DNA from: a virus | Lineage: Duplodnaviria > Heunggongvirae > Uroviricota > Caudoviricetes | Strand: one strand, 5' to 3' | Length of the DNA: 64,000 nucleotides | Virus record (IMG/VR): IMGVR_UViG_3300026472_000003 | Span: 82,851-146,850 of that record | Shown here: positions 37,891 to 58,195 of the stretch, piece by piece | How positions within the stretch are numbered: the stretch's first letter is position 1 | How the letters are laid out: every line of letters starts with the position of its first letter | Translations under genes and position numbers: made by a program | The notes under the pieces: generated by a model | Databases searched by the model: none | The model's input: the letters and a program-made list of their open reading frames with translations, nothing else | What the model was told of the DNA's origin: nothing

Positions 37891-37891
37891 A

Positions 37892-37978
37892 TGGCAGGAA
37901 GAACAGGATTCGAACCTGTAGTGGGGTTTCCCCGACGGATTTGGAATCCGTTGCGTTCAGCCATTTCGCTACCTCCCT
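37892..37978 (-). tRNA. tRNA-Trp(CCA) with extended variable arm
   Basis: Acceptor AGGGAGG/UCUUCCU-G (Trp-like 5' A and discriminator G), anticodon arm ACGGA-UUCCAAA-UCCGU, variable region CGGGGAAACCCCACU (hairpin), T-arm ACAGG-UUCGAAU-CCUGU. Confidence 0.5.
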
Positions 37979-37980
37979 AT

Positions 37981-38148: not shown

Positions 38149-38163
38149 CTTTACCTCGTTGTT

Positions 38164-38239
38164 TGGTACTCTCAACGGGATTCGAACCCGTGTTGTCTGC
38201 GTGAAAGGCAGGTGTCCTGATCCTCTAGACGATAAGAGC
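38164..38239 (-). tRNA. tRNA-Glu(UUC)
   Basis: GUCUAGAGG..CAGGACACC..CCUUUCAC pattern as in E. coli tRNA-Glu. T-arm ACGGG-UUCGAAU-CCCGU. Confidence 0.7.
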
Positions 38240-38453
38240 GTTGTGTTCCACAGGCTTCGGGTCTTTCGGGGTTACTCGTTTGTCTACGCTACTATTAACC
38301 CTTATTTGCGTTTGTGATTTCTCACATGGAGACCTATACAGGTCTGTAGACCTAAGAGCGTTTCTGCCTGAAAATCTTGACTGGATTATTCTCAACGATG
38401 AAGACCAGCCTCAAGCATCGTATAGCAAACATACGGGTTTGCAACCTAAGAGT

Positions 38454-38527
38454 TGGAGCGATTAGGGAGATTCGAACTCCACTCTGCGAGGCTTGGAAGG
38501 CCTGCGACACACCTCGTGCTTAATCGC
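38454..38527 (-). tRNA. tRNA-Gly(UCC)
   Basis: Acceptor GCGAUUA/UAAUCGC perfect, anticodon region GCCUUCCAAGC, ends CGCUCCA, 74 nt. Confidence 0.6.
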
Positions 38528-38533
38528 TGAAAC

Positions 38534-38609
38534 TGGTGGGAGTAGGTGGGTTCGAACCACCGACCTGACGCTTATCGAGCGCCTGCTCTACCGACTGAGC
38601 TATACTCCC
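38534..38609 (-). tRNA. tRNA-Ile(GAU)
   Basis: Canonical tRNA: GGGAGUA UA GCUC AGUCGGUA GAGC A GGCGC UCGAUAA GCGUC .. GGUGG UUCGAAC CCACC UACUCCC A CCA. Confidence 0.8.
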
Positions 38610-38620
38610 TCTGTGTTTGT

Positions 38621-38689
38621 TGCATGAATCAGGACTCGAACCTGAACGGGGGCTTTGCAGTCGTCCCCTGACCCTATTGTCGCTTACGC
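38621..38689 (-). ncRNA. tRNA-like element / degenerate tRNA (no canonical D or anticodon arm)
   Basis: Good T-arm UCAGG-UUCGAGU-CCUGA and a 6/7 acceptor pairing GCGUAAG/UUCAUGC, but the centre is a GGGG-N12-CCCC hairpin and no CCA. Confidence 0.3.
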
Positions 38690-38734
38690 TATCGTCGGCT
38701 CTACGTCTACCCATTCCGTCATTCACACGTCATT

Positions 38735-38816
38735 TGGTGGGGCCACCTGGATTCGAACCAGGGCGTGGTATACCGAATTTACAGTCCGGCGCGTTCGGCC
38801 TCTCCGCCATGTCCCC
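38735..38816 (-). tRNA. tRNA-Tyr(GUA)
   Basis: Class II tRNA, anticodon arm CCGGA-CUGUAAA-UUCGG, T-arm CCUGG-UUCGAAU-CCAGG, acceptor GGGGACA/UGGCCCC. Confidence 0.6.
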
Positions 38817-38823
38817 TTTAACC

Positions 38824-39177
38824 TTATTTGGCGCTTGAGATAGATATGATATCTGTTGTGAACGGCATTACTGCCTTTTCATTCTCAGACGCTTTACCTG
38901 TCTCAGCCACTCTTTCATTCTCTTCTGCGTCATCTTCCGCGTTGTATTGAATGTTGAGTTCTTCGCCTTTCTCAATAACATACTTAGCAATCGCTGCACG
39001 GATGTTATCTTTAGTGCCTGTCGCCATCAACAGATCCTTTATGACTCTGTAGGCATCGGGCATAAGAGCAATCATGTTTGTGTTACCATCCAAAACTGCC
39101 TTCTCTACTGCAATCGCGTTAGACTCTTCTTTGAGTGGTCTACCACGACGTCTTTTAATTGGTGGTTTAACTGCCAT
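38824..39177 (-). CDS. small basic protein (AT-hook-like KRRRGRP N-terminus)
   Basis: 117-aa ORF with GAGG RBS, embedded in the tRNA array. Confidence 0.45.
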   Translation of the reverse strand: MAVKPPIKRRRGRPLKEESNAIAVEKAVLDGNTNMIALMPDAYRVIKDLLMATGTKDNIRAAIAKYVIEKGEELNIQYNAEDDAEENERVAETGKASENEKAVMPFTTDIISISSAK

Positions 39178-39199
39178 ATCCTACCTCTCAATATAAGGA

Positions 39200-39228
39200 A
39201 GATTATCATCTATAATCTTGTTCGTCAA
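39200..39228 (-). promoter_or_regulatory. putative sigma70-like promoter (TTGACG-N17-TAATCT) for the 38824..39177 gene
   Basis: Read on the minus strand: -35 at 39223-39228, -10 at 39200-39205. Confidence 0.3.
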
Positions 39229-39266
39229 GAGGTATTTTATCACAAAACCTTTAAAATTTCAAACTT

Positions 39267-39343
39267 TGGAGCAGGGCATCGGATTTGAACCGATAAACAT
39301 CTCGTTTGCGGCGAGAGCCGTTACCTGATTCCGGCAACCCTGC
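39267..39343 (-). tRNA. tRNA-Cys(GCA) (C33 in anticodon loop)
   Basis: Anticodon arm UCUCG-CCGCAAA-CGAGA, T-arm AUCGG-UUCAAAU-CCGAU, acceptor GCAGGGU/GCCCUGC. Confidence 0.5.
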
Positions 39344-39348
39344 ATGTT

Positions 39349-39425
<77 letters not shown>

Positions 39426-39429
39426 TGTC

Positions 39430-39518
39430 TGGTGCGTCCGGTGGGGGTCGAACCCACAATCCCCGTCAGGGGAGGGAGATTTTAAGTCTCCTGTATATAC
39501 CAATTTCACCACAGACGC
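39430..39518 (-). tRNA. tRNA-Leu(UAA)
   Basis: Class II tRNA, anticodon arm GGAGA-CUUAAAA-UCUCC, long variable arm, acceptor GCGUCUG/CGGACGC. Confidence 0.7.
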
Positions 39519-39964
39519 TAATCATCATTTCTGAAATACTCGACAACAATATTATTCTCTGGTAAACGATCTACCTTGTTGTTTTGGACAGATGCCCCAT
39601 AAGTTCCTGCACATGACCTGCTGCAAAAAGGGCCTGCCTTCTTTCGTGACCTGTTTCTAACCTGCGTCACAGACAATTTGAAAAATGTTCCGCAAAACAC
39701 ACAGTTAGAATGCACATCTTTTCTACGCAGAGCGCTCTTCTCAGAGTTCTCCACTACAGATAGGATTTGAAGATTATCCTCATCTTCGTTGAGGAGGTTT
39801 CTGTCCACATGGTCTACCGTTTCATCGTCAGATAGTTCTCTTCCTAGTTTACTCTCCATCAACTGCCGAGGGTAACTCTTGGTGGTTCTCGAACCATCTT
39901 CCTTAGATAGTACCAATATCCTTCTTCCATCTTTCCTTGTGTACGGCCCGTAAATCTTTTTCAA
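39518..39964 (-). CDS. HNH homing endonuclease
   Basis: 148 aa with ..DHVDRNLLNEDEDNLQILSVVENSEK.. (H-N-N/HNH signature). Abuts the tRNA-Leu 5' end. Confidence 0.6.
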   Translation of the reverse strand: MKKIYGPYTRKDGRRILVLSKEDGSRTTKSYPRQLMESKLGRELSDDETVDHVDRNLLNEDEDNLQILSVVENSEKSALRRKDVHSNCVFCGTFFKLSVTQVRNRSRKKAGPFCSRSCAGTYGASVQNNKVDRLPENNIVVEYFRNDD

Positions 39965-40257
39965 TTGAGCCTCCTACAAAACTCTTAGGTCGGAGGCACC
40001 TGACCACCTTGTCGAAGATTTGATTAAGTGATTCATGAGGTCACCTTGGTCATTTCTCCTATCCCGCTCCCTTCAAGACAGTTTGCAACCTGTCAAGATC
40101 TTCGCTGGAAAGTGCGATACCCCGAACTAAGAGTTCTTTCTGTTTGGAGCCGAGTGGTGGAATCTAACCACCTATGTATGGGCAATGACACTATGGTCGT
40201 TTAACCTTTTTCAGGCCTGGATGGGCCTCGCGGTTGACAAACCGCCTACTCGGCAAT

Positions 40258-40333
40258 TGGAGCTGGTTGCAGGACTTGAACCCGCCACCCCCTGCTTACA
40301 AGGCAGGTGCTCTACCATATGAGCTAAACCAGC
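40258..40333 (-). tRNA. tRNA-Thr(UGU)
   Basis: GCUGGUU UA GCUC AUAUGGUA GAGC A CCUGC CUUGUAA GCAGG .. UUCAAGU .. AACCAGC U CCA. Confidence 0.75.
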
Positions 40334-40740
40334 ATGACATGTTGTCTCCGATAGACGCCTGGAGGTGTGGAGCGGCATATCTTATGACCGACCAGCCTGT
40401 AACCCAGGGTTTGAAGGAACTTTGTTTTTTAAGGCTTCACGTTTGAACTGCTAAACTTTAACCTTTCACACTTGAGGGGAGTTCACAGCCTCCTAAGAGC
40501 CGAAGCGAACTTAACCCGATGAACTTTGAGACATGAACTTTGAAGGTTTTTTCGAATGTATTCGAAACATCTTACGGTTATCATATCAGATAATCACCAT
40601 TATGTGTGTTGAGGTAGTTTAACCTCCAACCTCGATAGAGGTAAGATGTAACCACATCGTGATACCGAAAACAACATGTAAAACTTTAACAGCTTTATTA
40701 AGGAATCACAAGAGGTTATTCAAGGATTCCGTAAATTTTG

Positions 40741-41391
40741 TTACTCTGCCTTAGCAGGTTCCACTTCAATCTCTGTACGAGCGTTAGACTCGGAGAGAGC
40801 GAAGTCAACTTCGGTTAAGAAGTCGTCGATTTCTGTTTCCAGAGCTTCGATAACTGCTGCAAGCCCTGTTGGATCGTACAACGCTGGTTCACCACGTTGA
40901 CGGAGAGGTACAGCGATACCCTCTACTTCATCGCCTTTAGTGGCACGGTCACGACCTAACAGTGTATCCAACTTGCTAGACAAAGCCGCGTCAAATTCAC
41001 TGGAACGCTTGCTGAACTGGATCATCCCCATGTTATACAGCGCTTTCATCTTAGCTAAGAGGCCCTGACGAAGCACAACGCTACGCTTCTGCTCAATTGC
41101 TTGGGCTACAGTGGTCTCTTTACCACCAATGGTGACCAAGGTCACAGCATTTGACTGGATAATCCCAGCTTTCAGCAAGTCACGCATTGTCAGCATATCC
41201 GTAATAGACTGCAATTGAGACTGGGCCTTAGTGGCGAAATCAGTGGCGGTGACGGTTTTACCCGTGAGTTTCAGATAAGTACCTTGTCCTTCGGTCACTG
41301 CGACCAAGTCAAGACGCTCAGTTTGTTTAAGCAGCTTTGCGTCGAGGGACTTCAAAGTTGCCAGAGCACGGGTAATAGACATCTTAGCCAT
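40741..41391 (-). CDS. hypothetical protein
   Basis: 216-aa ORF with GGAG-type RBS, between the two tRNA clusters. Confidence 0.45.
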   Translation of the reverse strand: MAKMSITRALATLKSLDAKLLKQTERLDLVAVTEGQGTYLKLTGKTVTATDFATKAQSQLQSITDMLTMRDLLKAGIIQSNAVTLVTIGGKETTVAQAIEQKRSVVLRQGLLAKMKALYNMGMIQFSKRSSEFDAALSSKLDTLLGRDRATKGDEVEGIAVPLRQRGEPALYDPTGLAAVIEALETEIDDFLTEVDFALSESNARTEIEVEPAKAE

Positions 41392-41468
41392 TGTATTTCT
41401 CCTCTATGGATTTTAATTTTGAGTTTTAAGTTTAGTTCTTGCCGACATCCTTGTCAGCTTTGCAGTTA

Positions 41469-42080
41469 TTACTGCTTGCCAGTCTGAACAACTACCGCAG
41501 CGCGGTTGGCGTCAGCTTTAGCGATTTCCAGACGAGTGTCACGTTCTGCCTTGATCTGGTCACGCAGTTCTGCTACCTGAGCTTCAAGGTCTTTGATTCG
41601 GCTGTCTTTTGCAGTGTTACCCGCGTTCAGTTCAGCAATCGCAATCTTGTGCGTGGATTCCTGTGAGGACAGGCGAGCTTGCAGCTCACGAGCGCTTGAG
41701 GACTGTGCAGCGGCGACAGCAGAGGTAACTGCGTCTTCGTTACTGTCCAGAGCGTTGCTCAGGTCGTTACGGAGCTGAGAAACTTCTTCCGGCTTGATGC
41801 TAACCAGGCCACGAGCTTTCAGAATCGAGTTCACAACTGCGTCTTCGTTTTCCAGCGTCTTGATTTTCAGCACAGATTTAGCTTCTGCAAGTTTTTCGTC
41901 GTACTGAGTTTCGATCTGAGACAGTTCTTTCTGCTTGAACTGGATTTCCTGAGAAATCTGCTCAGATCCTTCTGCCAAGCCCTGTAGCTCAAGGACAACC
42001 TTACTCAGGTTACCTGATGCAGCAGCTACAGCTTTGGTTGCACGTTCGGTTACGGACACTACAGTTTTTACGTCAGACAT
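41469..42080 (-). CDS. coiled-coil hypothetical protein
   Basis: 203 aa, E/Q/A/K-rich heptad character, GAGGGG RBS. Confidence 0.45.
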   Translation of the reverse strand: MSDVKTVVSVTERATKAVAAASGNLSKVVLELQGLAEGSEQISQEIQFKQKELSQIETQYDEKLAEAKSVLKIKTLENEDAVVNSILKARGLVSIKPEEVSQLRNDLSNALDSNEDAVTSAVAAAQSSSARELQARLSSQESTHKIAIAELNAGNTAKDSRIKDLEAQVAELRDQIKAERDTRLEIAKADANRAAVVVQTGKQ

Positions 42081-42107
42081 GTTATTTTCCCCTCTCTAGG
42101 ATTTAAG

Positions 42108-42254
42108 TTAAACGTCCAAGTCGTATTTACGACGGGACTCTTCAATAATTTCTTTGGTAGTCATGGTGTTCTCTTGACCTATCCAGTAATACCAAAGAAA
42201 GATTACTACACTCAATACTGTCATTACCCCGAAGGACACTAACGGCGAAGGCAT
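42108..42254 (-). CDS. small hydrophobic protein (48 aa, not in ORF track)
   Basis: ATG at 42254 preceded by AGGAG. Translation MPSPLVSFGVMTVLSVVIFLWYYWIGQENTMTTKEIIEESRRKYDLDV. Confidence 0.35.
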   Translation of the reverse strand: MPSPLVSFGVMTVLSVVIFLWYYWIGQENTMTTKEIIEESRRKYDLDV

Positions 42255-42339
42255 ATGCACTCCTATTTGTTTTCACGTAAAGCACTTTCGTCCATTTAAG
42301 CTATCACCCTGTGCCATTACGCGAGCCGGGTCAGCAAGA

Positions 42340-42420
42340 CTGGGAGTCGAACCCAGATCTCTCTACATGAAAATTGGCAGTGTACCTCGGGTTCGAACCA
42401 AGACGCTACGAGGAGCTACC
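42340..42420 (-). ncRNA. tRNA-like degenerate element with two T-arm-like motifs
   Basis: Contains CUGGG-UUCGACU-CCCAG and CUUGG-UUCGAAC-CCGAG followed by GUACACU-G-CCA, but no matching 5' acceptor or anticodon arm was found. Confidence 0.25.
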
Positions 42421-42530
42421 TCGTCTGCTGTTGACCTTCGTCCTGCTTTGCCTTTCACCGCATTCCTGCCGCTCGTCAGCCACAATGTTTCGGCTTCCAG
42501 CAAAGAGACTCTTCAACATACACCATAACT

Positions 42531-42606
42531 TGGTGGGATGTACAGGCTTCGAACCTGTGACCTACGGATTAAGAATCCGCCGCTCTACCTACTGGGCTAA
42601 CATCCC
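42531..42606 (-). tRNA. tRNA-Lys(CUU)
   Basis: GGGAUGU UA GCCC AGUAGGUA GAGC G GCGGA UUCUUAA UCCGU .. ACAGG UUCGAAG CCUGU ACAUCCC A CCA. Confidence 0.75.
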
Positions 42607-42777
42607 AAATTTGTGCCAGACCAGTATTTTAAGTCCCCTGTCTGGCGTGAGGGAGACTATCTGCCATTGAGAGGTGACACCTTACTACGACCCTAACGAC
42701 CTGCAACTCCTTCCAATGGTTGGCTCATGCACTCGTTAGCGCCGATTCAGGACAATCCTTCTCGACAGCAAATCAGG

Positions 42778-43119
42778 TTACTTTTTCTTTTTGGAAGAAC
42801 CTTTAGATTCTACCGCCTTCGCTTCGACCTTAGTCTCACGAGACTTACTCAGGCGCTCACGCTTAGTTTTGCCTGTTCGGATACGATGAGAAACAGAAAT
42901 TACCTGACCACCTTCAACACTTGTCTTCGACTCCCAGAGGTAAACTACGTTACCGTCTTCGTCACGTCCTTTCTTGCGAACAGAAACCGTCTTGGTTGTA
43001 CCGCCAAGACGAAGGTCTTTAGCAGGTGAAGAAGTCTGTGTTGACTTCGAGTCAAAAGAGAAAGGCTGCTTAATCGCGTCGATTGCAGAGACTTTCTTAG
43101 CAGTGTTTTTCTTAGCCAT
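42778..43119 (-). CDS. small lysine-rich basic protein
   Basis: 113 aa, K/S/T-rich with a KKKK C-terminus, AGGAGA RBS. Confidence 0.45.
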   Translation of the reverse strand: MAKKNTAKKVSAIDAIKQPFSFDSKSTQTSSPAKDLRLGGTTKTVSVRKKGRDEDGNVVYLWESKTSVEGGQVISVSHRIRTGKTKRERLSKSRETKVEAKAVESKGSSKKKK

Positions 43120-43241
43120 CTTATGTTTCTCCTATTTGGATTATTTTATCTAACGTTTTGTTTTCTTTGTGTCTTTCAATGTCGGTAAGAGTAATCTCTT
43201 TTCTTCTCATTGTCAACACTTATTTTAAATCTTTTTTTGTT

Positions 43242-43318
43242 TGGTGGCCCATGCCGGACTCGAACCGACAACCGAGCGATTATGAGTCGCTTGCTCTAAC
43301 CAATTGAGCTAAAGGGCC
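43242..43318 (-). tRNA. tRNA-Met(CAU), elongator or Ile2-type
   Basis: GGCCCUU UA GCUC AAUUGGUUA GAGC A AGCGA CUCAUAA UCGCU .. UCGG-UUCGAGU-CCGGC AUGGGCC A CCA. Confidence 0.65.
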
Positions 43319-44620: not shown

Positions 44621-46384
44621 TTATTTCAGTAATCGTTCACGAATGGCTGTCAACGTTGTCTGATTAAACAACTTACCATTACGGAAGATTATTTGCAACT
44701 GATTATCCTCATCAGCCACCTCATGGAGGCCAAGCCCATCAATCAGTTGGTACACACCATCCGCCCCGAGAACAACCTTCAAGAAACCATTCGCAGATTT
44801 TTTCTTCATGTCTGTTTTCGGTTCTTTTGTCACCAGGATTTCATCACCACCGATGATGGAGCCAGTTGCTTTACATGCGAAACCTAAACTGTCGCGGGTG
44901 CTGTAGTTGTAGGTATAAGACCCGATGCCGAAAACGATGTTGCTTGAAGCATAACCACGTTCTTTCAGGCGAATCAGAATGTCTTCCGCACGTTGCAGCG
45001 TGATGCTGTCACCGTAGATCAGGCCGATATGTGAATCCAGAACACGGAAGCCTTTGCTGTTAACAGTTCCGCCGAAGGTTTCCCATAGGCATTCGATTGT
45101 GCCAAGAACTTCGTGACGTTTCAAGCTAGTGGCTTCACCCTTCTCACCGTAATAAACCCCATCTTCTTCAATGAGTTCCGCACCGCTGACCTTGAAGATG
45201 GTTTCAATATCACTTGGCGTGAAGTCAGAAACTTTTTCAATCTCTTCAATGTCCGCAAGATTTGACTCAAGAACCTCTGCCCAGCCGAGACGCCCTTCTT
45301 CGTACTCTGCACGGAGGTACGCTTTAGCAGCTTCAACTGAAATGACACGGTAGCCTGCAATGATACGCACTGGGTCACCAGAATCTGGACGAATAACCAG
45401 CTTGCCTTCACGGGCCATGATTTCATCTTTCAGTTCCGGCAACATTGCCAGGATAACTGCCCAGTAATCATAACTGTCTGAAACATATGAGCAATATCCG
45501 TCAGGATAAATTTCAGTCGCATACTTCTCCAGGAATACCAGCTCTGCTGCATAACGAAGCTCATCCAGAGTGGCATCTTTAAATCCTGGGTCTTTCAGAA
45601 GATTTTTAATAATCTTTCCGATATTCGTCGTCGCAACACTGTGTTCTGATGCTGGAATTGAACCCGCAACGAATTTATGAGCCATCCCATAGTAACGACG
45701 AGCATAACGGATTGCCGGAATGGTGTCCGTGCCGTAGAACGAAGTTAAATGTGCAATACCGTTTTTGTATGCATCAGCAATGCCAGACAATCCACGGAAA
45801 CTGAAATCATGACACTGGAACATTAAGTGGTCTAATGCATCACAGGTCTGATCCGCAAAATCACGGCACAGTTTGTAATACTGGTGTGCGATTGTTGCAT
45901 TGTTCATGACCTTCCAGGTTTCAGCCGACAGCGCCGTCTCAAAATAGTTTGTCAACCAGAAGAAACGAGAATCTGTGTTGTGGATAGTATAAACAGGAAC
46001 CTGAACTGGGGCCAATGAACCCTCCGGCAGGCAACGCATTTCTAAAGGTAAATAACCCAAGTCATGCAGAGCTTCGATATGCTCAGTGCGGATTTTTTCC
46101 TGAGGGATGCCCAAAGACAACCACAACTCTTCAACGTATTCACCGATAACCTGTTCTTTCGGTTGAGCGAAGAATTGCTCATTCCAATACTCAACTAAAA
46201 AGTTGATTGCAACACCCTGGACGCCAGCGACCACAACACGATGGTCTGAACCATAGAAGTGAGGGAAAAGTTTTTCAGATCGCGGGGTGAAGTTAGAGAA
46301 AATAACTTCACTTGCTTGGTTGTACTGATCAGCATGTGATGGTTTGTAGAAATCGGTTGCGAACAGCGGGTTCATCTTGATCAT
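44621..46384 (-). CDS. nicotinamide phosphoribosyltransferase (NAMPT/NadV)-like protein
   Basis: 587 aa. N-terminus NPLFATDFYKPSHADQY matches the NAMPT start (NILLATDSYKVTHYKQY). Confidence 0.65.
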   Translation of the reverse strand: MIKMNPLFATDFYKPSHADQYNQASEVIFSNFTPRSEKLFPHFYGSDHRVVVAGVQGVAINFLVEYWNEQFFAQPKEQVIGEYVEELWLSLGIPQEKIRTEHIEALHDLGYLPLEMRCLPEGSLAPVQVPVYTIHNTDSRFFWLTNYFETALSAETWKVMNNATIAHQYYKLCRDFADQTCDALDHLMFQCHDFSFRGLSGIADAYKNGIAHLTSFYGTDTIPAIRYARRYYGMAHKFVAGSIPASEHSVATTNIGKIIKNLLKDPGFKDATLDELRYAAELVFLEKYATEIYPDGYCSYVSDSYDYWAVILAMLPELKDEIMAREGKLVIRPDSGDPVRIIAGYRVISVEAAKAYLRAEYEEGRLGWAEVLESNLADIEEIEKVSDFTPSDIETIFKVSGAELIEEDGVYYGEKGEATSLKRHEVLGTIECLWETFGGTVNSKGFRVLDSHIGLIYGDSITLQRAEDILIRLKERGYASSNIVFGIGSYTYNYSTRDSLGFACKATGSIIGGDEILVTKEPKTDMKKKSANGFLKVVLGADGVYQLIDGLGLHEVADEDNQLQIIFRNGKLFNQTTLTAIRERLLK

Positions 46385-46441: not shown

Positions 46442-46969
46442 TCAAGAACAAAGTTCTAAACTGCTTGATGTCTCAACGATTGTTTTTGTTTCTGTTACCA
46501 ATCTGCAACCCTTGACAACAATGGTGCTCTCTTCTTTTGACCAAGAGCGCGGTCTCTTTTTGAAAGACTTTGCACGAAAAATCAAGAAATTAATCACGTT
46601 GTCTGGTGGCGTTTCGGAGAAGAAGATCGCCACACTCTCATAAGCAGGGCATTTAAAAGGCATCTCTTCGGTAACATCGTAATGCAGACCGCGACCATTG
46701 TTAGACCTTCCAGGCGTGGGCCAAATGGTTGTTGGTCGGTCGCACCCACCGTCTGACTGCTGCAATGTGAAATTATCTAACCAATCACAGATGGCATCGA
46801 TGTCAGAGTCAGGATATTCCTTCTTCAAATCTTCCCGTTCAGGAATGTACTCTTTTCCAGCCTCACACTCACCAATCTGCCCAGTGATGTGAGCACACAT
46901 CTCCCGTTCAAAGTTGCCTGAGTAAGAATCTGTGTCAACAACAAAGATAATACGCTTTGATTCAGTCAT
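46442..46969 (-). CDS. hypothetical protein between the PRS-like and NAMPT-like genes
   Basis: 175 aa, Cys/Asp-rich N-terminus. Confidence 0.4.
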   Translation of the reverse strand: MTESKRIIFVVDTDSYSGNFEREMCAHITGQIGECEAGKEYIPEREDLKKEYPDSDIDAICDWLDNFTLQQSDGGCDRPTTIWPTPGRSNNGRGLHYDVTEEMPFKCPAYESVAIFFSETPPDNVINFLIFRAKSFKKRPRSWSKEESTIVVKGCRLVTETKTIVETSSSLELCS

Positions 46970-47805
46970 TAAAAATTCTCCGTCCAGTCATGGTAAGCAT
47001 AAATTTCATCCACACCACCGTCGAGGATAACTTGTTTCCCAAAGGAGAAAATCCCGTGGGTAACATACAGTATTACACGTTTTGCACCTTTGGCTTTCAG
47101 CGCTTGGGCCAGTGCGATAAAGGTACGACCACCGTCACAGATATCATCCACGATAAGGCACTCTTTACCTTCGACATCACCAAACACCGCAGTGCCTGTG
47201 ATTTCACCTGTAGCCAGGTCACGGATTTTTCCTGCCTCAACAATTGGAAGTCGGTTGCTGTCTGCTACACCTTGTGCCTTCTTACGAGCGCCAGCGTCCG
47301 GTGCAACAACAACGACATCACGAGCGAAGAGGCCGACACCGAGGGTTGGACTGTTTTTAACAATCAGACTATTCAGCTCACGAACCAATTCCTTCTGCCC
47401 ACGGATTCGGATTTTGTTGATAAGGGCCTCTGACACATGGCTGTGTGGGTCATCAACAACAACTTTATCAAAGCCGAGGGAGTTGATGATATTCGCAAAA
47501 ACTTTAATGGATAAGGATTCACCTGGTTGCATCACTCGGTCTTGTCGAGCATAAGGGATGTACGGGAGGTTCAGAACGAACTCCGCGTTGGTGTCCAGAT
47601 TCTCCAGACGTGAACATGCATCAACCAGCAATGCTAGTGTCATAACGTCAACAGATGTCTTGATTTTGGCTGTGATTTCCACAAAACCGATACGCCCGTG
47701 CGGCGCATGTGCCAAGTCAATCTTAACCTGCTCTTCTCCACCCTTGAAAGTGAAGTGCTCAACTGGAACCACGAGATTGTTCAGTTGTAATTTTACGTTA
47801 CTCAT
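46969..47805 (-). CDS. ribose-phosphate pyrophosphokinase (PRPP synthetase)-like protein
   Basis: PYIPYARQDR and DDICDGGRT motifs of the Prs family. Confidence 0.7.
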   Translation of the reverse strand: MSNVKLQLNNLVVPVEHFTFKGGEEQVKIDLAHAPHGRIGFVEITAKIKTSVDVMTLALLVDACSRLENLDTNAEFVLNLPYIPYARQDRVMQPGESLSIKVFANIINSLGFDKVVVDDPHSHVSEALINKIRIRGQKELVRELNSLIVKNSPTLGVGLFARDVVVVAPDAGARKKAQGVADSNRLPIVEAGKIRDLATGEITGTAVFGDVEGKECLIVDDICDGGRTFIALAQALKAKGAKRVILYVTHGIFSFGKQVILDGGVDEIYAYHDWTENF

Positions 47806-48390: not shown

Positions 48391-48418
48391 TTGACTCCTC
48401 CTGTCAGACTGGTATGAT
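48391..48418 (+). promoter_or_regulatory. sigma70-like promoter TTGACT-N16-TATGAT for the plus-strand early genes
   Basis: About 30 nt upstream of the AGGAGA RBS of the 48448 gene. Confidence 0.5.
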
Positions 48419-49428: not shown

Positions 49429-49667
49429 AAAGCCTGAATAAATTATACCGTCGGTACAACAAGTTAAAAGCAAAACGGGCTGGTGTCGTTCAAGCATTCG
49501 TTGTTAGTAAAGAGGCAATGAAGCAAAATCGAATAACCCCTTGCCAGAGAGACTTGATACGCAAGTGGTTGGGGCCTTCTGTTGAAGAAATGGACGCAGA
49601 GATAAGAAATCTGAAAGGAAAAATCTCTGTAAAATTAGGAGAAATACATGCTTCATATAACATCTGA
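49425..49667 (+). CDS. hypothetical protein
   Basis: 80 aa. Confidence 0.4.
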   Translation: MKSLNKLYRRYNKLKAKRAGVVQAFVVSKEAMKQNRITPCQRDLIRKWLGPSVEEMDAEIRNLKGKISVKLGEIHASYNI

Positions 49668-50223
49668 CACCCACGATTCACATAAGAACATCCTGGGTTT
49701 CCCTTCCTGCAACAAGTTCCGTTATGACCTGTATGGGCCGAAGGAAGACCCTGAGAGTGTTGTCCGAATGAACGAAGGGATAGTTAAAATCTGGAACCAG
49801 CACGTCTCCCCACAAGATACTGTGTATCACTTGGGGGATGTGAGTTTGGCCTATGGCAAGAAGTCCATTGAGGCTCTCCATCGGTTTTTAAGTTCTGTGA
49901 ATGGAAAGATAACCCTCCTTCGGGGGAATCACGACCATAAAGAAACACGGAAGATGTTTGAAATGTTTGGTCACGAGGTTAAGGACTACCTTGAGATTGA
50001 GTTTGAGAAAGTCAAGGTGTGTATGTCCCACTACCCATTTGCGTCGTGGAATAAAGCTCACCACGGGTCGGTGATGTTGCATGGGCATAGCCACGGGTCT
50101 TACACGGCACCAGGCGGCAGAATATTGGATGTTGGTTGGGATGTTCATGGAAGACCATTAACCATGAAAGAGGCAGTTGACATCTGCCTGAAAAAGCCTG
50201 TATTCTCTACTGACCATCACTAA
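49648..50223 (+). CDS. calcineurin-like metallophosphoesterase
   Basis: Motifs DTHDSH, GDVSLAYG, GNHDHKE, HGHSHG. AGGAGA RBS. Confidence 0.65.
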   Translation: MLHITSDTHDSHKNILGFPSCNKFRYDLYGPKEDPESVVRMNEGIVKIWNQHVSPQDTVYHLGDVSLAYGKKSIEALHRFLSSVNGKITLLRGNHDHKETRKMFEMFGHEVKDYLEIEFEKVKVCMSHYPFASWNKAHHGSVMLHGHSHGSYTAPGGRILDVGWDVHGRPLTMKEAVDICLKKPVFSTDHH

Positions 50224-50235
50224 ATAAGGATTATC

Positions 50236-51162
50236 GTGGAAAAGTTCAATGTAGATGACTTAATAGCCAAAGGCCTTGTTCGTGCAAAGACTTACACCGA
50301 GGGCCAGTTCTCTGGCTTACGTGTGTTGAAGTATCACGGGCGTGTTTTTTGGGACAATATGTGGAAGCAAGACCCGCGATTGAAGGAGTGTCGTGGGATT
50401 GTTGTTGACCAAGATGATAACGTAATACTGCACCCGTTCACCAAAATCTTCAACCGTGGTGAAAACAAAACGGATCTTGCAATGGATCGCGTTGTTATCG
50501 AAGTGGAGAAGATAAACGGCTTCATGGCTGGGGCCACTGTATACAAAGGGAAGTGGTTAGTTTCGACGACTGGTACATTGGATTCTGACTATGCACGACT
50601 GGCGGAGGAAGTTATCCAGTTCTATAATCCATATCCGTCTCTTGACATTGGTTATACGCAAGAAGGGGCGATGTGGCGATCTTTGGATTTAATGTTTGAG
50701 ATTTGTCATCCATCAGACCCACACATCGTTGAGCAAGAGCCGGGGGCCTATTTGATAGGCGCTCGGTGCAGAGGTACAGGGAGAATGCTCTCTGAATCAG
50801 CACTGGACGGTATCTGCCCTGTTGGATGGAAACGTCCAGCTTGGCGCAAGTGTCTCTTTGCAGACACCGTAGAGGCCGCTAAATCATGCAAACATGAAGG
50901 CTTCGTGGTTCGTGATGTTGATTCTGGTGAACTTCTGCTGAAAATAAAGTCACCACACTACTTGGCGAAGAAATTCTTCATGCGTGGTGGGATTAAGAAG
51001 TGCGACTTAATCTGGGATACGGATCGTGTGAAGAAGTCGGTGGATGAAGAATACTACCCACTTCTCGACTACATCCGAGCAAATTATACAAAAGAGGCCT
51101 GGCTGGCCCTGCAAGAGCAGGAGCGCCGCCTGAAAATAGAGGCTTATTTGGAGGGAGATTGA
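50236..51162 (+). CDS. RNA ligase-like nucleotidyltransferase
   Basis: Motif I EKINGF (KxNG), motif IV EGFVV, motif V LLKIKSP. Confidence 0.5.
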   Translation: MEKFNVDDLIAKGLVRAKTYTEGQFSGLRVLKYHGRVFWDNMWKQDPRLKECRGIVVDQDDNVILHPFTKIFNRGENKTDLAMDRVVIEVEKINGFMAGATVYKGKWLVSTTGTLDSDYARLAEEVIQFYNPYPSLDIGYTQEGAMWRSLDLMFEICHPSDPHIVEQEPGAYLIGARCRGTGRMLSESALDGICPVGWKRPAWRKCLFADTVEAAKSCKHEGFVVRDVDSGELLLKIKSPHYLAKKFFMRGGIKKCDLIWDTDRVKKSVDEEYYPLLDYIRANYTKEAWLALQEQERRLKIEAYLEGD

Positions 51163-51584
51163 CACAACAAATTTACCTTGGGACGCTGTACATAATTCGG
51201 GGCTGCTCCGGCTCCGGTAAATCTACCTTCTCGAAAGAGCTGGCAGAGGTTACCGGAGGAATCCGTTATGAGGCGGACATGTACATGTATGATGAAGATG
51301 GTCATTATGACTGGCAGGCGGGCAAGCTGAAAGCCGCCCACCGCTGGGTGTATGAAGGGATAAGGGGCTGCATGATAAATGCAAAAGGCCCTTTGATCAT
51401 CGCTGACACGAACGTTAAGATCCGAGATTTGCAACTTTACCTTGACTTGGCTGCGGAGTATAACTATCGTGTTATCTCCTTGGTCTTAGAGAACAGGCAC
51501 GGGAACAAGTCCATCCATGACGTTCCTGACAAGACTATGCGCCGACAGGAGTCAGCGTTGCGTCAATCCCTCAAATTGGTGTGA
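51159..51584 (+). CDS. polynucleotide 5'-kinase (P-loop, T4 Pnk-like)
   Basis: Walker A GCSGSGKST in LYIIRGCSGSGKSTFSKEL, similar to T4 Pnkp ILTIGCPGSGKSTWAREF. Confidence 0.55.
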   Translation: MTQQIYLGTLYIIRGCSGSGKSTFSKELAEVTGGIRYEADMYMYDEDGHYDWQAGKLKAAHRWVYEGIRGCMINAKGPLIIADTNVKIRDLQLYLDLAAEYNYRVISLVLENRHGNKSIHDVPDKTMRRQESALRQSLKLV

Positions 51585-52069
51585 CCATGAGAACTCCTTT
51601 AGGTGATGGTGTTGACCACATCAATATCTACACGAAGGGGAGAACTCTCTTGGGGCGGATGCTGACCAACCTGTATGATTGTCAGTTCACCGTCCCTGGG
51701 TATGGCACATTCCAGAGCCTTGAGGGGTTCTGGTATTACTACCTAACTGGTTGCCAGTTTGAAGAGTTCAAATCTAAACGTGGTTTTGATGCCAAAAAAG
51801 CGGGAAAAACGAAAAGGGATTCGCGGATAGACAAGGATGGGTTGACCGAAGGTCAGAAATCTGTCATTCTGGAGGCGATCCGGTGCAAACTAAGGCAAAA
51901 TAAGGATATTCTCCTCGCTTTGGCGAGGTCTGACCTACCATTTGCACACTATTATTTCTACGGAGAACCTGAGAACGCCAAGGTCATAGAGCTACCACAG
52001 TTCGATTGGATGATTGAGGAGTTTACAAGGCTTCGCGGCTTATTGAAGGATATTGGATATGGCATTTGA
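51581..52069 (+). CDS. NADAR (YbiA/DUF1768-like) domain protein
   Basis: INIYTKGRTLLGRMLTNLYDCQFTVPGYGTFQSLEGFWYY fits the F..LSNF..F..G..F.S.EH.YQ core pattern. Confidence 0.45.
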   Translation: MTMRTPLGDGVDHINIYTKGRTLLGRMLTNLYDCQFTVPGYGTFQSLEGFWYYYLTGCQFEEFKSKRGFDAKKAGKTKRDSRIDKDGLTEGQKSVILEAIRCKLRQNKDILLALARSDLPFAHYYFYGEPENAKVIELPQFDWMIEEFTRLRGLLKDIGYGI

Positions 52070-52280
52070 TAGCGGATTGAGCGAGCTGGGGAAGGCTTTC
52101 ATAAGAGATAACCCACCACTCCTTTCCCTTCTTTACGATGCAAACATACTGCCGGAGGTGGTTGTGACTTTACAGAACCCTGCAAGACGTGCAACTCTGC
52201 TGGTGGCTGTTGTGGCATATGCACTCGGGAAGGGGCATGAAGACCCGAACACATTACTTAAACCTCAGGAGACAGCTTAA
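52053..52280 (+). CDS. hypothetical protein
   Basis: 75 aa. Confidence 0.35.
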   Translation: MDMAFDSGLSELGKAFIRDNPPLLSLLYDANILPEVVVTLQNPARRATLLVAVVAYALGKGHEDPNTLLKPQETA

Positions 52281-53128
52281 TGCGTCGATTAATAGTTATC
52301 TCTGGTGCTGGTCTGTCCGCTGAAAGCGGGATCAGAACCTTCCGCACTGACGAAGTGTCAGGGAAATCATTGTGGGACGAGTACAACCTTGAAGAGGTTT
52401 GTAACGTTCACGGGTTTAATACTGGTTACACATACCGTAATGACCCATTCCCTCCGCTGGCAGCACTGTCCGAGGAGACTGAGACATCACCATCTCAGAA
52501 TCTTTATCGTCTGACGCATGATTTTTATAATAAACGGCGGGTTGAGTTGCAGACTGTTGAACCGAATGCAGCACACAACGCAATCGCTGATTGGCACCGC
52601 CGTTTCCCTGGTAAGGTGATTAACCTGACCACAAACGTGGATGACCTTCTCGAACGTGCAGGGGTTGACCGTGATGATGTAATCCACGTTCACGGATACC
52701 TGCCAGAGGTGAAAATTCAGGAAAAAGAAGGCGGGAGTAAAAAGACAATCGATATTGGTTATTCTGAGATCAACCCTGACGATCATCACTGGGCCAAGCC
52801 AAATGTTGTATTCTTCCACGAGAATGCACCGCTGTATGCTGACCTGTATGACCTTATTGATTCTTTGACGAGTCAAGACTTGGTTATCATTGTTGGTTGC
52901 TCGAATATTGTAATCGATTTTGACCGTTTACTTTATTCCCCAATCATGAAAGGGACGAAGTGTATTGTTGTGAACCCACGAATCAGTGAGGCCGATACGA
53001 CATTGTACACCTCTTACGGGATTGCATATTTCCAGACAGGGGCGGTCAGCGCCTTTAGCAATCCAAACCTTGTCAAGGTGGTTGAGGATCACTTAGAGGG
53101 CCTGACATGTCTCCAAGCGAAATCTTAA
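52280..53128 (+). CDS. Sir2-like (sirtuin-fold) protein lacking the zinc ribbon
   Basis: GAGLSAESGIRTFR (NAD-binding GAGISxxSGIPxFR), TTNVDDLLERAG, catalytic HG in IHVHGYL. No CxxC pairs. Confidence 0.7.
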   Translation: MRRLIVISGAGLSAESGIRTFRTDEVSGKSLWDEYNLEEVCNVHGFNTGYTYRNDPFPPLAALSEETETSPSQNLYRLTHDFYNKRRVELQTVEPNAAHNAIADWHRRFPGKVINLTTNVDDLLERAGVDRDDVIHVHGYLPEVKIQEKEGGSKKTIDIGYSEINPDDHHWAKPNVVFFHENAPLYADLYDLIDSLTSQDLVIIVGCSNIVIDFDRLLYSPIMKGTKCIVVNPRISEADTTLYTSYGIAYFQTGAVSAFSNPNLVKVVEDHLEGLTCLQAKS

Positions 53129-53313: not shown

Positions 53314-54621
53314 ATGAGTATCAGCTTAGACACTCCGGTGCTTTTTGCATTGAACAAAGATGCATCCTTCCAGAAATGGAAGGTGTTCACGGAGGGGGAT
53401 GAGGTTGTTGTCGAGTTCGGTAAGCTCGGCGGAAAAATGCAACAAAAACGCACCAAATGTGAGATGAAGAATGTCGGTCGGGCTAACCAGACGGATGCCG
53501 ACTTCCAAGCTCTGTTAGAAGCTCGATCTAAATGGGAAAAACAGGTTCGTCTTGGCTATCGGGAAAGTGTTGAGCTGTTAACGCTGGAGGAGAATCTCTC
53601 CACGATGCTGGCCCATGATTACCTGAAAAAACCGAATGCCATTGTTCTACCTTGCTATACTCAACCAAAACTAGATGGTGTCCGTGCTCTGGTTCTGTAT
53701 ACGGACGGTGTTCCAGTATTTAATAGTCGTGGCAATAAGACATATCCTGTCCAGGGTAAACTTATTTCTCAAATGACTCGCTTGGCAAACGAAACAGGGT
53801 TTGACAAATTCGATGGGGAGCTGTACATTCATGGCTTGAGTTTGCAGAAGATTTCTGCCCTGGCGAAGAAGTGGCGGAGCCACGAGATGATTGCGGAAGA
53901 AATCCAGAAGGATTACGAAGCAGACATCAAGCGCCGGAACAAGGCAATAGCCGCAGGGGAAGAGAAATACAAAAACTTCGACGACGTTCTGTTCAGCGTG
54001 GATGTTGAGCCAGTTAAAGATGTTGACCGCTACAAAGGTTATTGCAGCTTCGACTTGCAGTTCCACATCTTTGATATTCCAGTGAACAAAAATAGTGTCT
54101 GGTGTGATAATGAAAAAGCTCCAGCATTCTGCCGCCTAGCGGACTTGATTGAAGTGGACACCGTGGTGGGTGTTAAAGAATCAGGGTATAGCCACATCCA
54201 TACTGTACTGGGTAGTTTTTGCCATACTCTGGAAGAAGTGAAGACCACCGTTGGTGTTAACATGCAAAGCGGCTACGAAGGATCGATGATTCGAAACTTC
54301 AAGGGTGTTTATGAGTTCGGACAGCGGTCTTCTGACCTTCTGAAATGGAAGATATTCCAGACAGCAGAGGCCAAAGTGAAGGACTCAAAAGAGGATAAGA
54401 ACGGTGAAGGTGTTCTGGACTGCGTGGAGCAAGACGGGACTGAGTTTAGCTGTAAGATGAAAGGGACTCATGCTGAGAGAACCCAGTCAAACATGCTGAA
54501 ACTCAAAGGCCAGTTCATTACCTTTAGTTTCCAAGCGCGTACCGATGCGGGTGTTCCGCAGTTCCCAGTGGGGATTTGTGTACGTGAAGTTAATCCAACA
54601 ACATGGGAGCCTATTTACTAA
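53314..54621 (+). CDS. ATP-dependent DNA ligase
   Basis: Motif I PKLDGVRAL (KxDG). Confidence 0.7.
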   Translation: MSISLDTPVLFALNKDASFQKWKVFTEGDEVVVEFGKLGGKMQQKRTKCEMKNVGRANQTDADFQALLEARSKWEKQVRLGYRESVELLTLEENLSTMLAHDYLKKPNAIVLPCYTQPKLDGVRALVLYTDGVPVFNSRGNKTYPVQGKLISQMTRLANETGFDKFDGELYIHGLSLQKISALAKKWRSHEMIAEEIQKDYEADIKRRNKAIAAGEEKYKNFDDVLFSVDVEPVKDVDRYKGYCSFDLQFHIFDIPVNKNSVWCDNEKAPAFCRLADLIEVDTVVGVKESGYSHIHTVLGSFCHTLEEVKTTVGVNMQSGYEGSMIRNFKGVYEFGQRSSDLLKWKIFQTAEAKVKDSKEDKNGEGVLDCVEQDGTEFSCKMKGTHAERTQSNMLKLKGQFITFSFQARTDAGVPQFPVGICVREVNPTTWEPIY

Positions 54622-55088: not shown

Positions 55089-55448
55089 ATGATCTGGTAC
55101 GTGCTTGCTCTGCTGAGTGCGACCATCCTTCTTGTTGGCGGTGTTTTCACCGCCTTCTATTTCCGAAAGGATAAGATGGATGATTTCATCGAGTGGACAG
55201 AGGGTAAACGAAAAACTATCGGAAAAATTTGGGTAGGCCTCTTGCTTCTTGTGACTGTGCTGCTGATCAAGCCGTTATGGAACACAATGACGTGCCAGTT
55301 TGATGGAGTGGCATACAAAGCAACCACGACCTACTCATGGTACAAGAATGGGGCCTATGAAGATAAGTGCCTGTTCCAAAGTAAAAACGGAACATTGCTA
55401 CCGTTAAAAATAAATCGTGACCAGCCGGAAGGCTCAGACAACCATTAA
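55089..55448 (+). CDS. membrane protein (two N-terminal TM helices)
   Basis: 119 aa. Confidence 0.45.
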   Translation: MIWYVLALLSATILLVGGVFTAFYFRKDKMDDFIEWTEGKRKTIGKIWVGLLLLVTVLLIKPLWNTMTCQFDGVAYKATTTYSWYKNGAYEDKCLFQSKNGTLLPLKINRDQPEGSDNH

Positions 55449-55462: not shown

Positions 55463-56182
55463 ATGAGTAAGATTCGTGCAACACTGAAAACCATGACCCG
55501 CAAACCAACCTTGATCGATCAAGCCATGCATGTTGTGACATGGAACAGTGTAGCAGTTTCAGCCCGAGGCGGCGCATTCACACCGCTGAACAAGCAGTTC
55601 GACTTCTTAGAGGAAGAATACGACGAGACTATTAAAGCCTTGGCGGAAGGTGATATGGTGGAAGTAGTAGACGGGGTTTGTGACATGTTTGTCGTTGCTT
55701 CTTATGCTTTCTGGTTGACACTAAAAGGAAATAAAGATCACGTTGACGATGACTCCATCAAAAGCCTGATCAGCTTGTGTAAATACAACCCAGGGGTCAG
55801 TTTCAGCTTAGTAGAGCTGGAGATGGCTATCGCTGAGGAGCGGAAGGCGTATAAAGCGTTGGAGCAAGTGATTGCCCTAGCCTACAGCCTCGACATCAAT
55901 CTCGGATACAACCTCAACGAGGTTCTTGCTTCGAATGATAGTAAGTACCCGACCATGGCAGAGTTACGTGCTGAGTTAGACAAGCAATGGGCGAATATTA
56001 AAACGTTGAGTGATGACGAGGTTCTGGCACACGAGGCAAAACAAATTGAGGCCCGTGAAGGCGGTAAATACTCTGGCGTCTATGCGGTTCTTAACGAAGC
56101 CACAGGCCAATATGTGTTCCTCACAGATGCAGGAAAAATTGTTAAACCAATTACTTTCAGAAAACCGAAAATAATCGTTTGA
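55463..56182 (+). CDS. MazG-like nucleotide pyrophosphohydrolase (tentative)
   Basis: FDFLEEEYDETIKAL (EExxE-like) and DGVCDMFVV acidic motifs. Confidence 0.35.
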   Translation: MSKIRATLKTMTRKPTLIDQAMHVVTWNSVAVSARGGAFTPLNKQFDFLEEEYDETIKALAEGDMVEVVDGVCDMFVVASYAFWLTLKGNKDHVDDDSIKSLISLCKYNPGVSFSLVELEMAIAEERKAYKALEQVIALAYSLDINLGYNLNEVLASNDSKYPTMAELRAELDKQWANIKTLSDDEVLAHEAKQIEAREGGKYSGVYAVLNEATGQYVFLTDAGKIVKPITFRKPKIIV

Positions 56183-57147: not shown

Positions 57148-57312
57148 ATGCTGCTGAACTTTCGGGCCGAAACGTACAGCAAGCTAAAATACCTGGCCCA
57201 AAATGCTGACAAATCAATAGCTGCTTACGTGGCAGCTTTATGTGACGAACATGTTGAGCAGAACGTCTCAACTAACTACACCTTAAAAGAGGAAAAAGAA
57301 ACCAATGATTAA
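57148..57312 (+). CDS. small ribbon-helix-helix-like protein (54 aa, not in ORF track)
   Basis: AGAGGGGA RBS. MLLNFRAETYSKLKYLAQNADKSIAAYVAALCDEH.. Its stop overlaps the next start. Confidence 0.35.
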   Translation: MLLNFRAETYSKLKYLAQNADKSIAAYVAALCDEHVEQNVSTNYTLKEEKETND

Positions 57313-58195
57313 GAATATCAAACGTATCCTGTTCGCTGCTGCATTGTCCCTGGCTGCTATTGGCCTTACCGGATGTGAACGTGCGACTGTCCCCGCTGGC
57401 TATGTCGGCGTTAAAGTAGACCTGTATGGCGATGAAAAAGGCGTACAGCAGCAGGAAGTTGGTGTTGGTAAGTATTGGTTGACTTGGAACGAAGAAATTT
57501 ATCAGTTCCCAACATTCAACCAGTTGAACAACTATCCGAAACCGTTCAACTTCCAGACCAAAGACTCCATGACGGTTGGGGCGCTTATCGGGGTTGAATA
57601 CTATGTTGACCCAAGCAAGGTAACTAAGATTTTCCAGACGTACCGTAAAGGCGTCCAAGAGATCACCGACATCAACATCCGCCAGAACATCTCGGATGCT
57701 CTGATTAAGGAAGCTGGTTATCTGGACATTGGTACACTGGCGGGTGATGGTAAAGCGAAGCTGCTAGACCATGTTACTCAAACTGTGAAGGCGAAGTTAG
57801 ACCCTATTGGTATCATCATTGTTAAGCTGTCCTACATTGATGAGTTAGAATATCCACCACAGGTTAAAGCGTCAATCAACGCCAAGATCGAAGCTACACA
57901 GAAAGCCCTGCTGCGTGAGAATGAGATCCAGCAGACTAAGGCCGAGGCTCAGAAACAAATTGAGGCAGCTCGCGGTGAAGCGGAATCTCGTCGCCTTGAA
58001 GCTCAAGGCCAGGCAGATGCAAAAGTGGCATTAGCTAAGGGTGAAGCAGAGTCAATCAACCTTCGTGGTGATTCTCTCCGTAAAAACCCAGAGATCATGC
58101 AGTTGGAAGCCATCAACAAATGGGACGGTAAAACACCTACCATTATGGGCGGAAACGGTGCAGTACCTTTCGTAAACTTGCCAGCAGGTAAGTAA
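57305..58195 (+). CDS. SPFH/band-7 (HflK/C-prohibitin-like) lipoprotein
   Basis: Lipoprotein signal with LTGC lipobox, then an SPFH-like core and a C-terminal E/A/Q-rich coiled-coil. Confidence 0.55.
   Translation: MIKNIKRILFAAALSLAAIGLTGCERATVPAGYVGVKVDLYGDEKGVQQQEVGVGKYWLTWNEEIYQFPTFNQLNNYPKPFNFQTKDSMTVGALIGVEYYVDPSKVTKIFQTYRKGVQEITDINIRQNISDALIKEAGYLDIGTLAGDGKAKLLDHVTQTVKAKLDPIGIIIVKLSYIDELEYPPQVKASINAKIEATQKALLRENEIQQTKAEAQKQIEAARGEAESRRLEAQGQADAKVALAKGEAESINLRGDSLRKNPEIMQLEAINKWDGKTPTIMGGNGAVPFVNLPAGK

Follow-up and report, generated by a model that had tools for sequence, protein, structure and literature searches.

The 64,000-nucleotide (nt) stretch of DNA analysed here (the window; positions 82,851 to 146,850 of IMG/VR virus record IMGVR_UViG_3300026472_000003) carries at 49648–51584 a cassette of three consecutive genes, for a calcineurin-like metallophosphoesterase, an Rnl1-type RNA ligase and a small kinase related to polynucleotide kinases (Pnk). 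We consider it probable, at roughly 70%, that the trio constitutes an RNA end-healing and end-sealing module, an interpretation built on the family membership of the three products, their intact catalytic motifs and the conserved linkage of their genes. In the proposed pathway the metallophosphoesterase would open and/or strip a 2',3' phosphate, leaving a 3'-OH that can be ligated, the kinase would add a phosphate to the 5'-OH, and the ligase would form lysyl-AMP on K92, transfer the AMP onto the 5'-phosphate and seal the break. A separate metallophosphoesterase of the aq_1665 type would thereby stand in for the HAD-type 3'-phosphatase domain of bacteriophage T4 Pnkp. We infer the RNA or tRNA substrate, the product of the phosphoesterase and an anti-defence role by analogy with T4 Pnkp and Rnl1 and from the surroundings of the cassette, which lies beside an array of 20 tRNA genes and a gene pair for NAD+ salvage.

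The window derives from a Vequintavirinae-like, Henunavirus-related phage of ∼147 kilobases (kb). The closest deposited genomes are those of Erwinia phages Hena1 and pEp_SNUABM_01 (Vequintavirinae, Henunavirus), with ∼74% nucleotide identity. In both the gene order is the same and the three genes are annotated 'phosphoesterase / RNA ligase / ATPase (polynucleotide kinase)'. Two of the three proteins have counterparts with 100% identity on a metagenomic contig of 146,864 bp. The trio is thus already annotated in deposited phages, and it has also been predicted computationally, independent predictions for homologous genes being available in three publications (PMC9503650, PMC7824862, PMC12846349). 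A first-pass annotation, made from the letters of the window, had called the cassette an RNA healing-and-sealing trio. It placed the three open reading frames (ORFs) exactly where we find them, all the motifs that it quoted are present, and profile searches of each ORF bore out the three identities, every product scoring above the curated Pfam cut-off. Its central proposal is right in substance, given these identities together with the linkage, the permuted gene order and the gene fusion described below. The target that it suggested, tRNA cut by PrrC, RloC or similar nucleases, would be an extrapolation from T4.

The product of the first gene is, as judged from its profile matches, a calcineurin-like metallophosphoesterase of the aq_1665/COG4186 type. 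It scores 27.4 bits against the Pfam family Metallophos (cut-off 21.5), is likewise over the cut-off of Metallophos_2 and matches PHROG 547 (1e-50). Its motifs are D7-x-H9, G63-D64, G93-N94-H95-D96, H128 and G146-H147-x-H149. An alignment of 35 homologues, the most distant at 33% identity, shows no variation at D7, H9, H12, G63, D64, G93, H95, H128, G146, H147 and H149 and very little at N94 and D96; the dinuclear metal site is therefore intact. The family profile has one strong structure match, to the Aquifex protein aq_1665 (1xm7, E 1.1e-24), which is without known function. This closest similarity, together with the DxH, GD, GNH(D/E), H and GHxH signature, places the protein in the aq_1665/COG4186-like subfamily. 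It does not group with the lambda-phosphatase/Pnkp-type enzymes, and its similarity to PdeM is far under the cut-off. Its predicted role is that of an RNA 3'-end healer, acting as a 2',3'-cyclic phosphodiesterase and/or a 2'/3' phosphatase.

The second gene is predicted to encode an ATP-dependent RNA ligase of the Rnl1 type, with K92 as the nucleophile. Its match to Pfam RNA_lig_T4_1 (PF09511) reaches 33.6 bits (cut-off 28.3), and the ligase motifs K92-I-N94-G95 (I), E155 (III), E221-G222 (IV) and K236-x-K238 (V) are all invariant in 82 sequences. Single sequences used as queries against the Protein Data Bank (PDB) told little about the ligase and yielded weak matches for the kinase, so that family profiles were needed for both. 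A profile of 24 ligase sequences matched T4 Rnl1 (2c5u, 9do4) with an E value of 4e-11, the match extending from the N-subdomain to the end of motif V. The counterparts of T4 R54, K75, F77, K99, G102, E159, E227, G228, K240 and K242 are kept in the 82 sequences. According to the profile alignment, the first three of these correspond to R53, K70 and F72 of the window protein and are invariant, except that position 72 is either F or Y. At two T4 positions the whole family has a different, invariant residue: Asn in place of D101 and Thr in place of K119. Downstream of motif V follows a helical C-terminal domain of ∼68 amino acids (aa). Both the profile and an AlphaFold model of the ligase match T4 Rnl1, and the model also matches the ligase domain of fungal Trl1 (Trl1-LIG); DNA ligases were not matched. 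A DNA ligase or capping-enzyme identity was therefore considered and rejected, the protein falling within the RNA-ligase clades. The first-pass annotation had held that alignment of this ORF to DNA ligases or capping enzymes would speak against its proposal, and what the profile aligns to is T4 Rnl1.

The third product is a stand-alone Pnk-like P-loop kinase and, on the evidence of its family relationships, a predicted RNA 5'-OH kinase. It matches Pfam AAA_33 with 40.9 bits (cut-off 27; 3.2e-10), PHROG 2071 with 3e-40 and, more weakly, the polynucleotide kinase family PHROG 505 (1.6e-7). A 29-sequence profile spans the kinase domain of Clostridium thermocellum Pnkp end to end (E 1.6e-7) and matches T4 Pnk (1e-6); PSTK and Capnocytophaga Pnkp1 are matched as well. 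The P-loop reads G15-C-S-G-S-G-K21-S-T, and D40 and E111-N-R-H-G115 are invariant. D40 aligns with the general base D38 of the C. thermocellum kinase, and R113 with an Arg of the QERNKNR lid segment of the same enzyme. The 141-aa protein consists of the kinase domain alone, no fused C-terminal DxDxT (HAD) 3'-phosphatase being present.

The junctions of the cassette were read directly. An AGGAG ribosome-binding site precedes the ATG of the phosphoesterase gene, and the 12-nt spacer between the phosphoesterase and ligase genes contains AAGGA. The stop codon of the ligase gene and the start codon of the kinase gene overlap in TTGA, with GGAGGGAGA just upstream, and a fourth gene, starting with GTG, overlaps the kinase stop in GTGA. 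Because of the TTGA overlap, the ligase–kinase junction is translationally coupled. The first-pass annotation had described all three genes as coupled; this holds for the ligase and the kinase, whereas for the phosphoesterase–ligase junction, with its 12-nt spacer, coupling is plausible.

The linkage of the three genes was assessed in 80 IMG/VR loci encoding ligase homologues (40–76% identity) together with Hena1, that is, 81 loci whose ligases form 36 clusters at 60% identity. ORFs were taken from all six frames, families were detected with iterated profiles and neighbours were counted within a radius of 6 kb. The kinase was found at 72 of the 81 loci and the phosphoesterase at 64. For 59 loci the sequence extends to 3 kb or more on either side of the ligase; of these, 56 contained the kinase, 51 the phosphoesterase and 48 both. 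When all flanking ORFs were clustered all against all, the kinase and the phosphoesterase were by far the two most frequent families, followed by PRPP synthetase (32), DNA ligase (30 and 12, in two clusters) and NAMPT (27). Since these counts are far over those of the next families, the association of ligase, phosphoesterase and kinase goes beyond background synteny. The gene order is phosphoesterase-ligase-kinase at 36 loci and kinase-ligase-phosphoesterase at 20, and the arrangement is divergent in rV5-like coliphages. In both main orders, which span ∼30 ligase clusters, the phosphoesterase gene adjoins that of the ligase. At 11 of the 81 loci the kinase and the ligase are fused into a single protein of 421–432 aa, with AAA_33 at residues 16–115 and RNA_lig_T4_1 at 184–367 (the lineage includes L047:5530-6828 as well as loci L040, L041, L044, L052, L053, L055, L056, L059 and L060); the fusion parallels the ligase-kinase fusion of Trl1. 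The linkage survives rearrangement of the gene order and, together with the fusion, provides strong comparative evidence that the three genes are functionally connected and share a pathway. The ligase has homologues in 697 deposited genomes of Escherichia, Klebsiella, Pseudomonas, Vibrio, Acinetobacter and Streptomyces phages, where it is mostly annotated as an RNA ligase.

The frequency of DNA ligase genes among the neighbours (one within 6 kb at 42/81 loci, and in the window an ATP-dependent enzyme encoded 2 kb downstream of the cassette) raises the question of whether the module, acting with that ligase, might heal and seal DNA ends, namely nicks with 3'-phosphate and 5'-OH termini, rather than RNA. 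In vitro, the ends of DNA are also substrates of T4 Pnkp. However, the ligase of the cassette clearly belongs to RNA-ligase clades, the phage has a separate DNA ligase of its own, the resemblance of the phosphoesterase to PdeM is far too low, and the kinase-ligase fusion mirrors RNA-repair enzymes. We therefore regard a role in DNA repair as highly improbable.

Several observations weigh against the healing-and-sealing interpretation or narrow it. Literature searches returned no biochemical or genetic work on any member of the cassette, and the kinase homologue is described as merely 'a nucleotide kinase' by Iyer et al. (PMC9503650). The kinase has no Arg at the position three residues after the general base Asp, which in T4 Pnk (R38) and C. 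thermocellum Pnkp (R41) binds the 5'-terminal nucleotide. C. thermocellum R41 aligns with Y44 of the window protein, T4 R38 would fall on M43 by a plain D+3 count, and both columns are variable in the family. In T4 Rnl1, specificity for tRNA (the anticodon loop) is conferred by a C-terminal domain of ∼120 aa (PMC6379707), and the window ligase, with ∼68 aa past motif V, lacks such a domain. For this reason tRNA is a putative rather than an established substrate.

The remaining objections concern the phosphoesterase. When the 80 best loci of this family were inspected, the ligase was present at 35 and the kinase at 35; the 45 loci without a ligase had no recurrent neighbour family. It follows that the phosphoesterase family is used beyond this cassette. 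In addition, no phosphoesterase was found within 6 kb in the lineage with the fused kinase-ligase. The kinase and the ligase might accordingly repair RNA on their own, while the phosphoesterase would be a general phage phosphodiesterase, acting on cyclic-nucleotide immune signals or on nucleotide or ADP-ribose derivatives, that happens to share an early anti-defence block with them. The enzymes of NAD+ and nucleotide metabolism encoded nearby (NAMPT, PRPP synthetase, Sir2, a NADAR-like protein and MazG) would suit such a function, and the median gap between phosphoesterase and ligase genes, 153 nt, is wider than the −4 nt that separates kinase and ligase. Yet the next most frequent non-kinase family reaches 32 loci, half the number for the phosphoesterase, which stays next to the ligase in both main gene orders. 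Moreover, some enzyme has to heal the 3' ends for a ligase dependent on a 3'-OH, and the kinase lacks the phosphatase domain that could do so. An unrelated task for the phosphoesterase consequently seems unlikely to us.

Two minor observations were made on the phosphoesterase loci. Two NCBI contigs examined for a cellular context of the family were both phage- or prophage-like, with no consistent partner. At three ligase-free loci, including L128:10694-11905, a 403-aa protein is encoded nearby whose N-terminus resembles, by eye only, the OB domain of RNA ligases of the DraRnl/Rnl5 type.

Among characterized repair systems, that of T4 is a functional parallel for the proposed healing-and-sealing module. 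With T4 Pnkp and Rnl1, which repair tRNA and thereby counter the anticodon nuclease PrrC, the cassette shares the same three predicted chemistries (5' kinase, 3' healing and ATP-dependent sealing), the Rnl1 adenylyltransferase fold with the N-subdomain residues R53, K70 and F72, a kinase of the P-loop Pnk clade, and residence in a phage that carries its own tRNAs. There are also differences. In T4 the 3' ends are healed by the HAD phosphatase of the kinase polypeptide, whereas here the kinase stands alone and healing would be performed by a non-homologous metallophosphoesterase. The ligases differ in motif I (KxNG here, KxDG in T4), at the position of T4 K119 and in the length of the C-terminal domain, and the kinases in the residue corresponding to T4 R38.

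With the Pnkp-Hen1 system of C. thermocellum the cassette shares the three superfamilies: a P-loop Pnk, a binuclear metallophosphoesterase and an ATP-dependent RNA ligase. The first-pass annotation had described the trio as the bacterial Pnkp combination split into three ORFs. As an evolutionary framing this is wrong, and fission of a bacterial Pnkp gene is rejected on four counts. The bacterial enzyme is one polypeptide, whereas here there are three; the phosphoesterase belongs to another subfamily; the ligase is not of the Pnkp type (Rnl4), which has a Hen1 partner; and the NCBIfam model TIGR04075, with a cut-off of 750 bits, gives 19, from the kinase alone. No Hen1 methyltransferase was seen in the gene block. 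The resemblance is one of analogy, not ancestry, and the cassette is a functional analogue built from different subfamilies.

Trl1, the fungal and plant tRNA ligase with LIG-KIN-CPD architecture (Rnl6 clade), offers a third comparison. It resembles the phage proteins in its KxNG motif I, in its short helical C-terminal domain, in candidate counterparts of the residues at its 2'-phosphate site, and in the kinase-ligase fusions of related phages. On the other hand, the fused order is kinase-ligase in the phages and ligase-kinase in Trl1, and the end healer is a metallophosphoesterase in the cassette but a 2H cyclic phosphodiesterase in Trl1. In Trl1-LIG, a sulfate taken to mimic the 2'-phosphate is bound by Asn150 (motif I), His227 (E218+9), Arg334 (K325+9) and Arg337 (K325+12), and mutation of the arginines weakens the preference for 2'-phosphate ends (PMC6379707, PMC12440814). 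T4 Rnl1, which has Asp at the motif I position and could be aligned with the window ligase as far as motif V, does not join such ends. The window ligase has invariant residues close to the Trl1 offsets, namely N94, H163 (E155+8), K246 (K238+8) and R250 (K238+12), and its C-terminal domain is nearer in size to that of Trl1, which begins right past motif V (the ΔCTD version ends at E328).

On these grounds one could imagine that the phosphoesterase leaves 3'-OH/2'-PO4 ends and that the ligase needs or prefers the 2'-phosphate. The junction 2'-phosphate would then be removed in an NAD+-dependent reaction by the Sir2-family protein encoded next in the same block or by host KptA, and the NADAR-like protein encoded there would clear the ADP-ribose product. 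A KptA/Tpt1-like action of the sirtuin on RNA 2'-phosphate has indeed been proposed (Iyer et al., PMC9503650), although this role is speculative. Several points argue against such a pathway. The residue correspondence was obtained from motif offsets and not from superposition. The sequence profile finds T4 Rnl1 and no match to Trl1 even at E 10. The plant ligase requires a 2'-phosphate but is without these arginines, which are therefore no general signature of 2'-phosphate recognition. Sir2 occurs at 11 of the 81 ligase loci and the NADAR-like gene at 3, so that neither can be considered a core partner. Furthermore, we know of no sirtuin that dephosphorylates RNA. Taken together, a Trl1-like reaction sequence appears distinctly unlikely. 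Very doubtful is its fullest form, in which the ligase would be the phage counterpart of Trl1 (Rnl6), sensing 3'-OH/2'-phosphate ends through N94, H163, K246 and R250, and the genes from phosphoesterase to Sir2 would form a viral pathway of healing, sealing and 2'-phosphate removal, with a zinc-less sirtuin replacing Tpt1/KptA and the NADAR-like enzyme clearing the ADP-ribose product.

The proposed RNA repair module agrees with a gene neighbourhood already described. In phages related to V5 and Mydo, an RNA-repair neighbourhood centred on a sirtuin has been delineated, in which the sirtuin is linked to MazG, a nucleotide kinase, a T4-like tRNA ligase and a calcineurin-like phosphoesterase (Iyer, Burroughs, Anantharaman and Aravind, Viruses 2022, PMC9503650, section 3.7.3). 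The window, from a related phage (Vequintavirinae), represents a further instance with essentially this set of genes. Two differences were found. The phosphoesterase is called 'occasional' in that work, whereas among our 81 loci no family other than the kinase accompanies the ligase so constantly (64/81). The window also lacks the cREC gene of the described neighbourhood and has the NADAR-like gene in its place. The homologous kinase and ligase of the Pakpunavirus Adele have likewise been read as a tRNA repair system, and the missing phosphatase domain was noted there (2025, PMC12846349).

Defences that cut tRNA or mRNA are widespread and include PrrC, RloC, PARIS, retron and toxin RNases, Cas13 and OLD. 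To our knowledge, T4 Pnkp and Rnl1 form the sole repair pathway of a phage to have been elucidated by experiment. The cassette would represent a much commoner solution, considering that the ligase alone occurs in 697 deposited phage genomes, and its 3'-end healer differs from that of T4. The function of the trio bears on the aq_1665-type phosphoesterases, a subfamily without known function, and on the question of which host nucleases can be neutralised by phages that are candidates for therapy (Vequintavirinae and Pakpunavirus). Also at stake is the end requirement of the ligase, which could be T4-like or Trl1-like.

Features of the cassette and its surroundings in the 64,000-nt window (positions are those of the window)
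Feature	Position	Strand	Remarks
tRNA genes (20)	34952–43318	−	ARAGORN
NAMPT-like phosphoribosyltransferase	44621–46384	−	NAD+ salvage pair with PRPP synthetase
PRPP synthetase	46969–47805	−	pair transcribed divergently from the repair block
Candidate sigma-70-type promoter	48391–48418	+	TTGACT-16-TATGAT, extended TG, 10/12 matches; weak evidence
Phosphoesterase ORF	49648–50223	+	191 aa, ATG start
RNA ligase ORF	50236–51162	+	308 aa, GTG start
Pnk-like kinase ORF	51159–51584	+	141 aa, TTG start, overlaps ligase stop
Divergent NADAR-like protein	51581–52069	+	162 aa, GTG start overlaps kinase stop
Sir2-family protein	52280–53128	+	282 aa; Pfam SIR2 1.6e-21, PHROG 2162 3.6e-94
ATP-dependent DNA ligase	53314–54621	+	downstream of the cassette
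Terminator-like hairpin	55137–55154		downstream of the cassette
MazG-like pyrophosphohydrolase	55463–56182	+	weak PRA-PH Pfam match; syntenic with the Hena1 pyrophosphohydrolase
SPFH/Band-7 protein	57305–58195	+	downstream

The same-strand gene run continues from the cassette through the genes for the NADAR-like protein, Sir2, the ATP-dependent DNA ligase and the MazG-like protein, an extension that the first-pass annotation had missed. The NADAR-like protein has no Pfam match, even at E 10. Its family comprises ∼1,400 members, including fusions with Macro, YAcAr/SLOG and DUF4326 domains, and the family profile matches the NADAR structure 8bau (1.6e-4) and YbiA (0.018). On the basis of these matches the protein is possibly a divergent NADAR-like, lineage-specific accessory that may process ADP-ribose derivatives. 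Its identification with the published cREC was considered and rejected, cREC (cREC_REC, PF20274) being a different protein, of 116 aa. The latter is encoded directly past the ligase gene in rV5-like and Klebsiella phages, at 13 of the 81 loci (for example L006:7148-7492), and in Escherichia phage Murica it is gp204 (L083:4412-4762), located between the ligase and Sir2. The NADAR-like gene may be a functional replacement of cREC. A 75-aa ORF separates it from the Sir2 gene. The Sir2-family protein has the GAGxS and HG motifs and no CxxC cysteines of a zinc ribbon.

On the other side of the cassette, the NAMPT/PRPP synthetase pair is not peculiar to the window: it is also found beside the ligase and kinase genes of Pseudomonas phage JG004 and, overall, at 27–32 of the 81 loci. 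The tRNA array includes two genes for Met, three for Ser, two for Leu and one for Lys(CTT), and none for Lys(TTT); the count of ∼23 tRNAs given in the first-pass annotation is thus to be lowered to the 20 genes that ARAGORN finds in the window.

The cassette lies just past a strand switch near 48.2 kb, at which the GC skew changes sign, being negative before ∼48 kb and positive after it. It separates two transcription modules or may be related to replication. The candidate promoter is located in this region, upstream of the plus-strand block that holds the cassette. Promoter and terminator scans of the region gave no excess of sites over shuffled controls. A divergent promoter-like pair is present at the switch (∼48200).

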